A DNA stretch of 64,000 bases, taken from Octopus vulgaris. Lineage: Eukaryota. Within the stretch, counting starts at the first letter, position 1, and each line of letters starts with the position of its first letter. A program made the translations under genes and the position numbers. Positions 2,680-53,122 of the stretch are shown here, one piece after another. The notes below the pieces were generated by a model. The model worked only from the letters and a program-made list of their open reading frames with translations. It searched no databases and was not told where the DNA came from. The stretch is taken from positions 87,358,001 to 87,422,000 of the forward strand of contig OX597818.1 of assembly GCA_951406725.2 (NCBI GenBank), read 5' to 3'.

Positions 2680-4525
2680 TATAATCAAAATAAGCAACAA
2701 GAATGACTCCGGTAATTTGGTACGATCGTTTCGTACTACATCATTTTATTAAATGTTGTAAGTATTACAACAGTTTTAAAATACTGAGCACTCATCAGCC
2801 AATTATAGAGGTTTTCCGTTAATACAAAAATTTTCATATCAAGTGGCAACATTATAGAGAAGGTAGATACATAGACAAAGATATGTGGATTTAAATTTTA
2901 AGAACATTTGAGGTAGTGGAGCCCATCAACTGACTGACTAAGATTCAGTTGTTCCAGACTACTGTAAGGTTCTGAGAGGGAAGAACAAATGAAAAGAGAC
3001 AATAAAGATTTTCTAATTATAGAAATGGGGTAAAGCTCCATATAAGGAATTTATGTAGAAGACAGCATTGTCACAACTAAATGCCAATTACTACTATTTG
3101 ATGAACAGATTCAGCGTTAGGAGAACTAGGTCAAAGTCAAATTGTCACAATAACATTCACAGAGAATGCAGAGACCTTACAAACCCTATGCATATCAGCA
3201 CAACAGTTGGTCTATAAGTTCCAAGTACTTTGACACGTTAGAATAAAGGAAAAAATCTAAATCTAAAATTTATTCAAATTTGGAGAAAGAGACTATCACT
3301 TATTATGAGTAGGCATAGTACTTATTAACTGGGGGAAAAAGGCCTTATTAATCAAGTGAACATATTAGGGGTCAAAATATATACTAAGAAAGATGGAAGA
3401 GGGAAAACCAAAGGAGGAAGATATTCAAGGTTTAGTAGAAGGCGATATTTTATAACATGAAGAGAGGTAATTTAGAAGAGTAAATTATTCAAATTTCATG
3501 GATAGTGAGTTGATATTAATGGATTAAAATATAGGATCTATTGGAAATAAAATTTACTACCTGCGGAAAAAAGTTAATTAGTTAGGTAAAAACATCTTAG
3601 GTTAATTATATATTAAGAAATGGGAGTGAGATAATCAAGATGAACCAAATAGTTTCCCTAGGGATATAGGATTAATGCTACTTAGTACTGGAGAACATTA
3701 TAAAAAAGAAGAATCATTTATGGGTGTTAAACTAAAACCAGTATGGTATATTCGTTTCTATTTGGTTAAATATATTTTGTAAAGATATCTTAGACTAATT
3801 ATATATTAAGAAATGGAAGTGAGATAATCAAGGTGAACTGAATAATTTCTTTAGGGACATAGGATTCATACTATTTAGTATTCCTACTATTTGGGATTCA
3901 TACTATTTAGGATTCCAACTATTTAAATGCATACAGTTTAATTTTAGAAAAAAGAAGAATTCAATTTTAAGTTTGCAGTGAAGTTATTTTAGTCGTCTAT
4001 AAATGTTAAATTGAAAGCTAGTATGGTATATTCCTTCTTATTTGGTTATAAAGAATTAAAATTTGAAAAATATAGGAATATTCACAAAATTATTATTTAA
4101 AGTATTTAAACGTTCGGGTCGTACGATGTATACAAGAGCCTCCCAGCTCCAAACGGTTATTCAACAGATTTGTATTACTCTGATGTTTCAAAATTTCATA
4201 TGTTTCCATAGAACAGAGTTGACAACCATCCCTACTATTTCTATAAGGTTGCGCTCTTCTAACTATATCCCAATTTTGGTTGAATTCTATATTATTTGTT
4301 TTTAGTTCCCAAATTTTACTAGATAATGTTGTGCAACCTGTCTTATGTTTGAGCCTAAAAGAGGAAAAATGATTGTTTAGACGTTTTTTAAAATCTACCG
4401 AACAACCGAGATAAAGAAAGCTATTATTTGGTAGAGTCTGCAGCCTGTACTTCCGATAAGATGCAGCCCAGAACGTTTCTGCATCCTGCAGTTGATATAC
4501 ACAGACACAGACAAGCACACACACA

Positions 4526-4570
<45 letters not shown>

Positions 4571-4800
4571 ACACACACACACACACACAGACACACACAC
4601 ATGTATAACCAATTAAAATTCTAACATTACGTACTCGTTGGATCCAAAAAGAGGATCTGTGAATAAGCAGTCTAGTCTTAAAGGAGTCTTCGATTGCGCC
4701 GACATATTTCTGTGTATGTTCCATCAATGTTTGTCAACACTAATTTTGCATATTAGGCCAAGGCGTCTATGTTGCGTTGGAATATCCACACTGAAAATAC
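2680..4800 (-). mobile_element. Penelope-like element 3' part: broken GIY-YIG endonuclease, long AT-rich 3' region with ~190-bp tandem duplication, terminal HHR
   Basis: Peptides QKYVGAIEDSFKTRLLIHRSSF and YLGCSVDFKKRLNNHFSSFR..TTLSSKIWELK..WDIVRRAQPY..CQLCSMETYEIL..LLNNRLEL..CIH. The YxG segment occurs twice around a (CA)n tract. Duplication at about 3590-3780 and 3782-4050. Confidence 0.8.
2717..2802 (-). ncRNA. Type I hammerhead ribozyme, canonical core, branched stem II
   Basis: Minus strand: ttgg-CTGATGA-gtgct..(three small hairpins)..agtac-GAAA-cgatcg-TA-ccaa. Lies downstream of a minus-strand Penelope GIY-YIG relic. Confidence 0.88.
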
Positions 4801-13580: not shown

Positions 13581-13581
<1 letters not shown>

Positions 13582-13790
13582 AGGATAAGATCGTTAATTT
13601 AAATTAAATGGCCAGCATGGAAATAAAAACCTTCAAAGGTAATAATAATTGTTAAAATTATAACTTAGGGTATCTACGAGATAATGCCATGCTGAAAATA
13701 GCAGCCAGTATCTGACTCTAAACCATCTTAAGTGTTCATATAGCACGCGGAGAGAAAACAAGAAGACAAAATAAAACTAGTAAAAAATAT
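13581..13790 (-). ncRNA. (AT)n-abutting module with unassigned four-way-junction RNA motif (copy 1)
   Basis: Minus strand: TGGCTGCTATTT, helix cagcatgg/ccatgctg enclosing three hairpins and ACCCTAA; outer helix agatggt/gccattt. Confidence 0.6.
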
Positions 13791-13799
13791 GTATGTTTG

Positions 13800-15741: not shown

Positions 15742-15936
15742 TGTAAATAATAAAAGGGTAAAATGAATTAATTATTAATTAATAATTTTACCAAGTAGTG
15801 TTCAGTATGTAAAAAGACCATTTACGGTATATTTAAAACATTACGTTATATAATTAGGGTTCAGTAAAAAAATTTACTTTACCACGCACCGAACTGTTAG
15901 AAATAGCAGCCAAAAAATTTAGCTATTTCATCTACT
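15742..15936 (-). ncRNA. (AT)n-abutting module with the same four-way-junction motif (copy 2, different stem sequences)
   Basis: Minus strand: TGGCTGCTATTT, helix gttcggtgcgt/acatactgaac, hairpins agtaaa/tttact, tata..aacg/tgtt..tata and accg/tggt, ACCCTAA; outer helix agtag/ctact. Confidence 0.6.
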
Positions 15937-15973
15937 ATATATATATATATTTCATCTACTATATATATATGCT

Positions 15974-16878
15974 GTGAGTCAATGGGCAGACAGAAACAAA
16001 ATGCAACTGAATGAGGGAAAATTTGAGCTGATGCATTTTGGAAGAAATTCCTCACTAAAACAACCATACTCTCTTCCTTCAGGGGAACCGCTCACAGCCT
16101 CTAACAATATCAGAGACCTGGGTGTAATTGTTGATGACGATCTCAGTTGGAGTGCACACATCAACAAGAAGGTCGATATAGCTCGTAGGATGAGTTCCTG
16201 GATCTTAAGAACTTTCCGGTCCAGAGAACAAGTTGTCATCATACCACTTTTTCCCTCCTTTATACGGCTACACCTTGAATACTGCTGCCCACTGTGGTCG
16301 CCCCATACAAGACAAAACATCTCCAGAATTGAGTCACCCCAGAGGGCACTCACTAAACGAATTGAAGGCATGGCTGCTCTCGATTATTGGGATCGCCTTA
16401 AAGCCTTGAAACTTTACTCCCTCCAGCGTCGCCGTGAGCGGTACATCATTTGTACGATGTGGAGAATATACCGCCAACTTTGCCCAAAGAACTTAACATT
16501 AGCTTCAAGGTTCATCCAAGACTGGGACCACGGGCCATACGTCCCCTGCCCAATTCAAGATCACAACATACATGTACACTGCAACATAATTTCTTTTCCT
16601 AAACAGGCCCTGCCCTATTTAACATTGTCCCGAGGGAGATCAAAGAGGAAAAGGATCCCATCAACTTTAAACGGAGTCTGGATAGATTCCTTCAAAGAAT
16701 ACCAGATAAGCCACCCATAATTGGATACAACTCACCCAACAAGAACTCACTACTTGAACAAAATTTGACTTAAACAACACTTGACTTAAACAGGACTCGA
16801 ATAATCCTTTCAGGTGGTGCTATTAAGTTAGACATGGCCTGGACCAGTCTTTGGTCGAAACATATCCAAGTTTATCCA

Positions 16879-16882
<4 letters not shown>
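15974..16882 (+). mobile_element. CR1-clade LINE, 5'-truncated (RT C-terminus plus 3' UTR)
   Basis: WADRNKMQLNEGKFELMHFG..IRDLGVIVDDDLSWSAHI..LEYCCPLWSPH..QRALTKRI..YWDRLKALKLYSLQRRRERY; frameshift near 16490; tandem tail (atccaagttt)2. Confidence 0.9.
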
Positions 16883-16949: not shown

Positions 16950-18367
16950 ACCAAAAAGGATCAGTAAGGAATTCATTACTAAATCAATTGAATTCATCCT
17001 ACACAATAACCACTTCATGTTTGACAATACATTTTACCGTCAAAAATCCGGAATTGCTATGGGTACAAGGGCAGCACCAGTCATTGCGAACTTAACAATG
17101 GGATACATGGAAATAATCATTTACCAGGAATCTCTATCAATCTTTGGAAACTCCCTCTCTCAATACATAAAAGAGAATTGGAAACGATTCCTAGACGATT
17201 GTTTCATTCTCTGGAATGAAAACATAGATAAACTCCTAAAATTTAAAAACCTATTGAACAGCATAAACCCAAATATACAGTTCACAATGGAATACAACCA
17301 AAAGGAGCTCCCGTTCTTGGATATACTAATTAAAAAAATTAACCTTAAAATAGAAACAGACATTTTTTACAAAGCCACAGACGCCAAACAATACCTTCTT
17401 TTTAATTCATGCCACCCAAGACACACTAAAACAAACATCCCCTTCAACCTTGCAAGAAGGATATGCACAATAGTGTCAGAACAAAATACCAGGAACTTTA
17501 GACTGCAAGAACTCAAAAACACCCTGATTGACAGACATTACCCAGCTCAACTCATAGAGGATGGGATCAGACGTGCAACAGAAATCAACATAGAAACTTT
17601 AAGAAAAGTTCAACACAACAACACACCTTCCCCGAAAATACTACCTTACATATCTACATACAACCCCAGAAACAAAGAAGCCTTCACCATCATCACCCAG
17701 AATTTACCAATACTTCATAAAAACCCAAAATTAAAGGAAATTCTAAACATACACCAAATCATTAAAAGCTACAAACAGCCTAAATCACTTAAAAAGATTC
17801 TCACAAAGGCAAAATTGTCTTCTAAAATTACGGATGCAAAAGTAAAAAAATGTGGTAGATCGAACTGTGCAACATGTCCTAACCTATTGGAAGGATCAGA
17901 ATTCTTCTTTAAAGAGGGACAGAAATTCAAGATCTTCCCATTTTACCAATGTGCTTTCGGATCATCAACACAAATGAGACTGAACAAGGAAACATTCTTC
18001 ATTGAAAAGTACAAACCCAGACTCAACCATCCGAACATACTGACACAGAGAAATTAACAAGGAAAAGGAAAAAAAATTTTTTAAGCGATTATCTCCCCTA
18101 CACCGGAAAAAATCACTCACTACCTCCCCTTATTTAGAAATCTCCTGGAAATAAAAACAACGATAATTCCATGCAATATAAACATAACGTCACAAGAAAT
18201 TTGAAAAGCTACACGCGAAACCGGTAATTTCTTTAAAAATTTTAAAATTATGTCATTTTAAGGAAAGGGAAAAAAACTTTTTCCAATATTCTCCAGACAT
18301 TTTGACACAAATATATATATTTTTTAACATTTAAGCCTTCTGTCGTTTTTTCACACTTTACTATTTT

Positions 18368-19520: not shown

Positions 19521-19522
19521 GA

Positions 19523-19632
19523 TATAAAGGGTAAAATTAATTAATTAATTAATAATTTATAATTTTACCAAGTAGTTCGGTATATTAAAAGAACTAATAT
19601 CGGTAACCTTATACAAAAATTCTATAATTATA
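19523..19632 (-). repeat. Truncated relative of the 15742-15936 module
   Basis: Shares aaagggtaaaat..aattttaccaagtag..ttc.gtat..aaaaga..cggta; lies between (AT)n tracts. Confidence 0.65.
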
Positions 19633-19633
19633 A

Positions 19634-19687
<54 letters not shown>

Positions 19688-26641: not shown

Positions 26642-27857
<1,216 letters not shown>

Positions 27858-27941
27858 TGCACAGCTTAATGCATGAAAGTACTAGCTCAATCAGAAGGAA
27901 CATGTAATATTGTATCATTTTATTATTTTATTATTATCTTA

Positions 27942-28277
27942 TGTCTTCTACTATAGCCTCGGGTCAACCAAAGCCTTCATTGTGAGTTGATGTGGTAGAC
28001 GGAAACTGAAAGAAGCCCGTCGTATATATGTATACATATATATGTATGCGTGTGTATATGTTTGTGTGTTAGTGTTTGTCCCCCCCCCCCAAAAAAAAAC
28101 ATCGCTTGACAACCGATGGTGGTGTGTTTACGTCACCGTAACTTAGCGGTTCGGCAAAAAAGACCGATAGAATAAGCACTAGGCTTAGAAAGAATAAGTC
28201 CTGGGGTCTATTTGCTCGACTGAAGGCGGTGCTCCAGCATGGCCACAGTCAAATGACTGAAACAATTAAAAGAGTAA
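27942..28277 (+). mobile_element. Family B SINE, 5'-truncated
   Basis: tgtcttctactatagcctcggg..aatgactgaaac..aaaagagtaa. Confidence 0.88.
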
Positions 28278-28337
28278 GCGTTATATTATTATAAGATTGT
28301 AAATAAAACGTGAAAATCACAGTTGGAATTCCCTTGA

Positions 28338-28383
<46 letters not shown>

Positions 28384-32959: not shown

Positions 32960-33646
32960 ATGATTTAGATTAAAGATTAGGGTCAGAGTCAAGGTTTAGG
33001 GTTGATGTTTAGGGTTGGGGTTTAGAGTTGGGATTTAGGATTGGGGTCATTGTAGAATTAGGGTTTAGGGTTAGAGTTAGGGTTTATGGTTGGAGTTTAG
33101 GGTTAGAATTAGGGTTTAGGCTTAGGGTTAGGGTTAGGGTTTAGGGTCAAGGCGGCGAGCTGGCAGAAACGTTAGCACGCCGGGCGAAATGCTTATTTCT
33201 TCTGCCATTACGTTCTGAGTTCAAATTCCGTCGAGGTCGACTTTGCCTTTCATTCTTTCGGGGTCGATAAATTAAGTACCAGTTACGCACTGGGGTCGAT
33301 GTAATCGACTTAATCTCTTTGTCTGCCCTTGTTTGTCTCCTCTATGTTTAGCCCCTTGTGGGCAATAAAGAAATAAGAATTAAGGTTTAGGGTTAGGGTT
33401 TAGGGTTAGAATTAAGGCTTAGGATTAGAGTTAGGGTTCATAGATGGGGTTTAAGATTAGAATTGGAGTTTAGAGTTATAGCTAGGGTTTAGAGTTAGAA
33501 TTATGATTAGGCTTAGAGTTAGGGTTCATAGATGGGGTTTAAGATTAGAATTGGAGTTTAGTGTTATAGTTAGGGTTTAGAGTTAGAATTATGATTAGGC
33601 TTAGAGTTAGGGTTTAGGGTTCTGGTTTAGGGTTAGAATTAGGGTC
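32960..33646 (+). repeat. Degenerate interstitial (TTAGGG)n-like array interrupted by a family A SINE (33150-33377)
   Basis: ttaggg, ttagag, ttagaa and tttaggg units; ttagggttagggtttagggt on both sides of the SINE. Confidence 0.9.
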
Positions 33647-33649
33647 AGG

Positions 33650-34893
33650 TGTTGCTCAGCACTCGTAGAGAGAAGACGTCCATTTGCTGCTTGCTGTCTT
33701 CGTGTTGCTTCTTATTTTGTTTATAATTTACCCTGAAAATGTCAAAAAAAAAAGAAAAGAAAAGAAAAGATAAACTGCTGACATCCCAATGGATAACATC
33801 GAGAAAAAGAAAAGGAAACATTTATTATTATCAAAAGTAGAGTTACTACAGAAACTTGATCGTGATGTGTCTGTGCGGTGGCTCACTGAAGAATACGAAA
33901 ACATTCCTGTAGACGATATGATGAAAATGTGTGATCGTCTAATATCTGGCCTCGAACAACGTGCATTTATTAGTGAGGAACAGATTATGGAAGTTTACTC
34001 AATTAAAGAGACATTGCTTAGACAGAAAAATATGCTAATGAGAGAGATGACACTTAAAAATGCTCTCTCTTGTAGTGCTGCTTCATCACTTTAGAATCCC
34101 GTTCCTGGCCCATCATCGGAAGTTTGCCTGCAACCTGATGACGACGTTGGTGATACTGATGGACGCTTTGAAGGCGGCGAGCTGGCAGAACCGTTAGCAC
34201 GCCGGGCGAAATGTGTAGCCGTATTTCGTCTGCCGCTACGTTCTGAGTTCAAATTCCGCCGAGGTCGACTTTGCCTTTCATCCTTTCGGGGTCGATTAAA
34301 TAAGTACCAGTTACGCACTGGGTCGATGTAATTGACTTAATCCCTTTGTCTGTCCTTGTTTGTCCCCTCTATGTTTAGCCCCCTGTGGGCAATAAAGAAA
34401 TAGATACTGATGGACCCAGTTCTACAACTTAACTGCAGATACATATTTAGCCTAGTTTGAACCAGTTTATGGCTCTAGCATATAAATAAACTGTTATTAC
34501 CATTTGTAGCCTTTCTTTATTTAAACCAGTTTGAATACTTAAACGTCTATCTACAGAAATATTATGGTAATGTGTATACCTGCACTTGTGAATCGTGTAT
34601 TTTTGTTTTAAATTATCCCACTATATGTATTTTGTTATTTATGTTCTTAATTATCTCGCTATTTCATTTACCTGTATATTACTCTATAAATAAATTATAA
34701 TAATATTTGTAATCTTTATTTCCGCCACTGATTGTGAGTACGTGTACATGTGCTTTTGCTACCATAGTAGGATGTCTGCTTTGATGTCTAGTTTACAATC
34801 TGGGGCAGCTGGCTTTTGTTCTGAAATCCGAAAAAATATGAAATTCAGAACACAACTGTCCCCAATTGTGCCCGATAAAGGATTATGTACCTG
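33650..34893 (+). mobile_element. Tigger/pogo-like deletion derivative
   Basis: ORF 33789-34094 joins an N-terminal HTH start (KRKHL..KVELLQKLD..VSV..LTEEY) to a C-terminal segment (IPVDDMMKMCD.LISGLEQRAFISEEQIM), with no DDE core; right end ..gattatgtacctg|TA. Confidence 0.65.
34171..34402 (+). mobile_element. Full-length family A SINE with 13-bp TSD
   Basis: gatactgatggac at 34152-34164 and 34403-34415. Confidence 0.93.
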
Positions 34894-53071: not shown

Positions 53072-53122
53072 TCTTAACTGATGAGGCAACGGAAATTGCC
53101 GAAACTGACGTCAGTATCAAGA
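53072..53122 (+). ncRNA. Type I hammerhead ribozyme, canonical core, 12-nt palindromic stem III
   Basis: tcttaa-CTGATGA-ggcaa-cggaaa-ttgcc-GAAA-ctgacgtcag-TA-tcaaga. Confidence 0.9.

Follow-up and report, generated by a model that had tools for sequence, protein, structure and literature searches.

A covarying RNA domain associated with two insertion-end sites in hammerhead-bearing non-LTR retrozymes of Octopus vulgaris

Motif copies in the window

The window, by which we mean the whole 64,000-nucleotide stretch of DNA that was analysed, contains two copies and one partial relative of a folded RNA motif. All three lie on the minus strand, where the preliminary description had correctly placed the two main copies. 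Copy 1 belongs to a family A retrozyme and spans 13581..13791 (-). It keeps 84 nt upstream of a 12-mer (UGGCUGCUAUUU), is 5'-truncated short of the hammerhead, and has its 3' end at site II (defined below) against (TA)n. Its folded domain, delimited from predicted folds and from pair changes across families, occupies 13606..13728 (-) and is built of P1 (13722-13728/13606-13612), P1b (13713-13719, pairing into the 12-mer at 13696-13707), P2 (13687-13694/13613-13620), the inner part of P3 (13671-13683, the outer GGU being mutated in this copy), an AU-rich P4, and P5 (13629-13640). P6 is represented by its 3' arm only (13583..13589), the 5' arm having been deleted.

Copy 2 is a family B1 retrozyme at 15742..15940 (-), also 5'-truncated, with 28 nt kept upstream of the 12-mer and a 3' end at site II against (TA)n. 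The folded domain at 15793..15936 (-) contains P1 (15932-15936/15793-15798), P1b (15922-15929 into 15901-15912), P2 (15884-15894/15800-15810), P3 (15873-15883/15858-15868) and P5 (15817-15828), and is followed by the terminal hairpin P6 at 15757..15792 (15784-15792/15757-15763), with site II 13-17 nt further on. A LINE-like RT fragment at 15973-16880 (+), 5'-truncated and ending in a short repeat and then (TA)n, lies directly beside this copy.

A truncated relative had been noticed near 19523-19632, and it proved to be a 5'-truncated family E-type copy at 19521..19635 (-). It consists of the 3' half only (the P4 3' arm, a mutated P5, the P2 and P1 3' arms, and P6) and ends at site II against (TA)n. 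Two further hammerhead modules, at 53078 (+) and 12485 (-), are unrelated in sequence to the motif families; each is situated about 200 nt upstream of an end that abuts a microsatellite. The window also holds an interstitial, degenerate TTAGGG-like array at 32993-33650 with a higher-order period of 88 nt.

A lineage of non-LTR retrozymes

In the window the 12-mer has two exact matches and one with a single mismatch, compared with 0.34 expected. A genome-wide collection of matches to the 12-mer followed by ACCCTAA, the approach proposed in the preliminary description, returned 1461 matches against 0 for the reversed control. A 21-mer of the type found in the 13606 copy gave 1518 matches at no more than one mismatch, and a pattern for the 3' hairpin gave 2294 against 17 for its control. 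These counts show that the motif marks a repeat lineage and is not a chance occurrence. The host genome is 2.8 Gb and rich in microsatellites, and motif copies are spread along whole chromosomes in (TA)n. Pieces of family A were also recovered in contigs of 4 of 24 sequencing runs (organisms A, B and C), contigs that are silent on strand, ends and circles; an apparent joint in them running back by 496 positions reflects no more than the ordinary continuity of the unit as it was delimited. A pattern scan of metagenomes yielded four matches in sequence of 41-55% GC, without the fold, which were taken as chance, and a single two-word match (L160) was dropped because it resembles a fusion of an old repeat with the hammerhead of another element.

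The lineage is large, comprising thousands of copies of non-autonomous non-LTR retrozymes, and the two window copies are ends of such elements that have lost their 5' part. The units are 470-620 nt long, and the sequence 3' of the motif re-enters the next unit, some units being arranged in tandem arrays. Family J includes a six-unit array of 484 nt per unit with units 98-100% alike, and the units of family K measure 473 nt. Near-perfect multimers of J and K are located at C10:8927302-8929971 and C8:104850133-104852292, respectively, and partial tandems were found in families A, C and E. The preliminary description had pointed to an upstream open reading frame in long copies, but the units are non-coding: those read whole contain no RT or endonuclease coding sequence, and tblastn with Penelope-like element (PLE) proteins gave no match inside them.

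The motif had been thought to stand in the position that a hammerhead occupies in sister modules. Instead, every family carries a type I hammerhead of its own, situated 76-125 nt upstream of the motif. Among 64 distinct copies found through the 12-mer, 37 are truncated before the hammerhead, both window copies among them, and 27 extend far enough 5'; the hammerhead core is kept in 20 of these 27, three of the 20 being the references themselves. Stem I has 5-6 bp, with paired changes from one subfamily to another, and the predicted cut follows an NUH triplet. The hammerheads were recognised by pattern, with a first stem II pair that is non-canonical in A, B1 and C, and the Rfam scans missed those of the retrozyme units.

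Tandem units, a type I hammerhead, the lack of RT and endonuclease, low GC, the range of unit size and a PLE as the likely helper are all shared with the animal non-LTR retrozymes described in PMC7229834 and bioRxiv 10.64898/2026.07.22.740005. For those elements the consulted parts of the two papers define neither a conserved fold beyond the hammerhead nor a rule for insertion ends, whereas the lineage described here has a covarying domain and two structure-linked ends across some eleven subfamilies; no parent pLTR was found. The class of element is already known, and the conserved RNA domain and the one-site-per-arm rule are apparently undescribed, no account of either having been met in the literature searched, which was thin on subscription journals and on Repbase/Dfam.

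Structure and conservation of the RNA domain

The helices named in the preliminary description fold as predicted there, but two elements had been missed, the hairpin P1b and the terminal hairpin P6, so that the domain is larger than first noted. An outer P1 encloses P1b, P2 and a four-way junction with P3, an AU-rich P4 and P5; the 3' arm of P1b is the 12-mer that was called invariant, and P6 starts two bases after P1. The same fold, built from different base pairs, is present in about eleven subfamilies, among them family J, which is nearly unrelated in sequence (BLASTN of J against families A and B detected no similarity beyond the region of the 12-mer). The median folding z-score of 33 full copies was -4.9. 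Family J folds unaided into the same topology, with a z-score of -5.4 and none of 200 shuffles as stable. For one J copy folded as a complete unit, the linear prediction lost P2 and P1b, and the circular prediction lost P1 in addition.

In a comparison of 11 subfamily representatives, pairing was seen in 281 of 297 cells and a double-sided change in 19 of 27 columns, the latter figure being overstated in that the P2 register was chosen for maximal pairing and P1/P1b of K are mis-anchored. For P6, which was anchored by landmarks only, the same representatives gave 73 of 77 paired cells and double-sided changes in 5 of 7 columns. The within-clade alignments A2 and A4 showed 95% and 94% of cells paired, with two double-sided pairs each; as many arose in 236 of 500 (A2) and 110 of 500 (A4) shuffles, and covariation within clades is thus modest. 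A covariance model built from B/C copies (R1) scored the 13606 copy at 15 bits (E 0.58), below an unrelated repeat, and therefore cannot join the families. MAFFT placed A out of register against B and J.

In the named helices of 12 B/C copies, G-U pairs occupy 45 cells on the motif strand and A-C only 8; at least two G-U occur in 8 of 45 columns and at least two A-C in none. This bears out the earlier argument from G-U pairs, and together with the orientation of the hammerhead the counts point to the minus strand as the RNA. Folding energy alone leaves the strand unfixed, since minimum free energy favoured the motif strand in 28 of 33 copies and the z-score favoured it in just 21 of 33.

Neither of the two words put forward as invariant is so. 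The 12-mer is exact in 6 of the 11 representatives and ACCCUAA in 7, and ACCCUAA is not unpaired as had been proposed, because its ACC closes P3 with an upstream GGU, a pairing that becomes GGC/GCC in family C. What persists across near-unrelated families is a small set of unpaired landmarks: AG/CU in P1b, CU after P3, UU/UG between P1 and P6, and C-Y-U after P6.

An old SINE-like repeat (L081-L095; 94 exact matches) carries the P1b word and aligns with family J over 35 nt at 86%. The shared word is followed by a short GGUCG-NN-YGACC hairpin, and no hammerhead was seen upstream; the repeat is possibly an ancient relative.

Insertion ends

The 3' ends of insertions fall at two sites tied to the fold: site II follows P6 by 11-25 nt, and site I follows P3 by about 12 nt. 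Families A, B/C and J together gave 94 non-tandem 3' ends, 52 at site I, 39 at site II and 3 elsewhere, counted with wide site windows that were drawn after A, B and J had been seen and by searches to which ends upstream of the query words are invisible. (TA)4 occurs within 12 nt of 79 of the 91 ends at either site. Family K was examined after the sites had been defined, and all 23 of its non-tandem ends fit (10 at site I, 13 at site II), although its primary matches favour site II. In all these counts copies with identical flanks may have merged.

In the young family J, where P3 ends at +43 and P6 at +141, insertion ends peak at +55 to +57 (17 ends) and at +152 to +163, and they avoid the longest TA-alternating stretches of the unit (+64-67, +144-148 and +197-201). 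In A, B and K, TA-like sequence makes the position of site I less sharp. The sequence around site I varies from family to family, and the ends at site II scatter over about 12 nt. The predicted hammerhead cut lies at a variable distance from the motif (76 to 125 nt), whereas the offsets of the two sites from P3 and P6 are preserved.

Insertions of the PLE type are recognisable by their 5' truncation, inverted and partial-tandem copies, a tail at one end and a microsatellite target, and all these traits are present here. Outward-facing inverted insertions combine one site I end with one site II end in 27 of 28 cases in the A, B/C and J set and in 5 of 6 cases in K, that is, in 32 of 34 overall.

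Proposed role of the domain

We lean towards a reading in which a Penelope-like RT acting in trans would use the domain as a platform for docking and for setting its start sites. Tandem units would be transcribed, and a PLE protein, likely of the Neptune type and possibly a dimer, would bind P1/P1b/P2/P6 and nick both strands of (TA)n. Priming within the four-way junction, about 12 nt beyond P3, would give one cDNA, and priming 11-25 nt beyond P6 would give the other. Both cDNAs would be 5'-truncated and would then join head to head, and the stretch of about 100 nt between sites I and II would correspond to the PLE 'tail'. Taken from the known PLE mechanism and the mapped ends, such an in-trans platform, with one start in the junction and the other after P6, seems to us just on the probable side. 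The minus-strand RNA, the conserved fold, the Penelope-like context and the option of an RT-recognition structure, all of which had been put forward in the preliminary description, are supported by the present results.

The closest precedent is the Poseidon PLE of Anolis (PAc). According to the sections of PMC11167929 at hand, the purified protein starts reverse transcription at two internal sites downstream of the hammerhead, nicks and extends both strands of AT-rich DNA, and requires a defined segment of RNA rather than hammerhead cleavage, with the two starts bounding the genomic tail. Two internal sites downstream of a hammerhead, extension of both strands, the AT-rich target and a tail formed by the stretch between the starts are the points of likeness. 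PAc differs in being autonomous, its starts lying in one AC-rich stem-loop within the ORF and bounding a tail of 30-40 bp (PMC11167929), whereas the retrozymes are non-coding and their sites, about 100 nt apart, flank the 3' half of a two-junction fold. A pLTR tail at just one end of an inverted insertion is characteristic of PLEs (PMC8557442; PMC3846280), and the extension in the retrozymes resembles it, except that it is about three times longer and follows a near-strict rule of one long and one short arm. The bias towards (TA)n has been tied to the Neptune-type linker in the accessible portion of PMC8557442; three motif words searched in one supplement of that paper were absent from it.

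The most serious alternative, which we consider rather unlikely, is that selection retains the fold because it serves the RNA in a general way, through compaction, stability or circularisation, and that the end sites are merely accessible AU-rich stretches that the RT happens to use. Both sites do lie in weakly paired AU-rich segments, the J monomer as a whole is 62-65% paired, outside the domain as well, further long hairpins occur elsewhere in the unit, and retrozyme circles are predicted to be highly self-paired in the part of PMC7229834 consulted. General compaction, however, does not account for a topology and a few unpaired landmarks that persist across near-unrelated families, nor for other AU-rich open stretches that are not used as ends, and the pairing of one site I with one site II end needs a dedicated geometry.

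It is less likely still that the domain binds a host factor (one for export, a ligase, or a protein blocking the hammerhead of the circle), with the RT positioned only indirectly. According to the Discussion of PMC7229834, some cause other than self-pairing probably blocks the hammerhead in animal circles, and the old SINE-like repeat shares the P1b word over up to 35 nt. The domain is also shared by none of four autonomous PLEs, but these are just four of the many PLE families in the genome, and the insertion ends map onto the domain itself.

That the two-junction fold is an undescribed self-cleaving ribozyme, cutting at sites I and II to leave 3' ends that a Penelope-like RT copies onto two target strands, we regard as very improbable. 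Site I is indeed sharp in J. A search of the window and four loci, as the preliminary description had advised, returned no Rfam ribozyme match at gathering score or at E up to 10, and the blank over the domain carries little weight because the same scans were blind to the hammerheads. A hammerhead is already present in every unit, invariant positions are few among the unpaired bases, and neither the variable surroundings of site I nor the spread of site II favours a cleavage site; internal initiation by a PLE has, moreover, been demonstrated independently of cleavage (PMC11167929). Twister-sister-like ribozymes have a conserved CA cut site in an internal loop between two stems (PMC11620745), and no such CA is among the unpaired landmarks of the 11 representatives.

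The suggestion that ACCCUAA, as a complement of the telomere repeat, serves as a telomerase-like template or telomere-annealing site can practically be set aside. The heptamer does sit directly 5' of site I and equals the reverse complement of TTAGGG with one base more, but the idea fails because its ACC is paired, and covarying, and because J and K, both active, lack the word, while A3, F, family C and a B2 variant carry altered forms of it. An endonuclease-minus PLE annealing to telomeres, or a telomerase template, would need an invariant single-stranded repeat and a terminal location, and was rejected for a word that is paired and variable in copies that are interstitial, all along the chromosomes in (TA)n. 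Penelope-like RTs are the sister group of telomerase RT, and in telomerase RNA template-positioning elements place a structure beside the internal template and so set the RT start. The resemblance of the proposed platform to these elements is an analogy only, as the retrozyme domain shows no repeat template, pseudoknot or sequence likeness to them.

With its very young arrays (J and K) and two mapped end sites, the lineage provides a small cis-element that nature has already mutagenised. It makes directly testable both how Penelope-like RTs recognise RNA and choose internal starts and the presumed mobilisation of animal retrozymes by PLEs.

Candidate partner elements

Four young autonomous PLE families, three of the Neptune type and one other with a GIY-YIG endonuclease, were examined among the many present in the genome, and the domain is absent from their own ends. 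Clade labels were given by motifs, a cysteine linker marking the Neptune type, and not by a tree. The first two Neptune-type families resemble the retrozymes in having two 3' ends.

Full copies of the first Neptune-type family (L164, L165, L167) contain two overlapping ORFs with open frames of about 450 and 811 aa. No canonical hammerhead was found by pattern in this family, and its two 3' ends are about 45 nt apart. A copy of this young family, 5'-truncated and with an internal deletion in the endonuclease, is present in the window at 16954-18360 (+). The second family (L204-L223) has a frame of 775 aa, and all 150 of its 150 scored protein matches are 100% identical. It carries a hammerhead-like element with a CCGAAGA core, and its 3' ends are 32 nt apart. 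An older copy in the window, at 27795-28350 (+), has the core CTGAAGA, and a word resembling the motif in this family was rejected as it is not kept in the older copy.

In the third Neptune-type family (L225-L243, L247-L250) all young copies carry along a 3' region made up of GT/AT simple repeats and longer than 1 kb. In the fourth family, of the GIY-YIG kind (L061-L080, L244-L246), an inverted family C retrozyme sits in a long simple-repeat 3' region and has been amplified as a passenger, which inflates one of the counts used in assessing ACCCUAA. A GIY-YIG fragment from another PLE family lies in the window at 4093-4620 (-).
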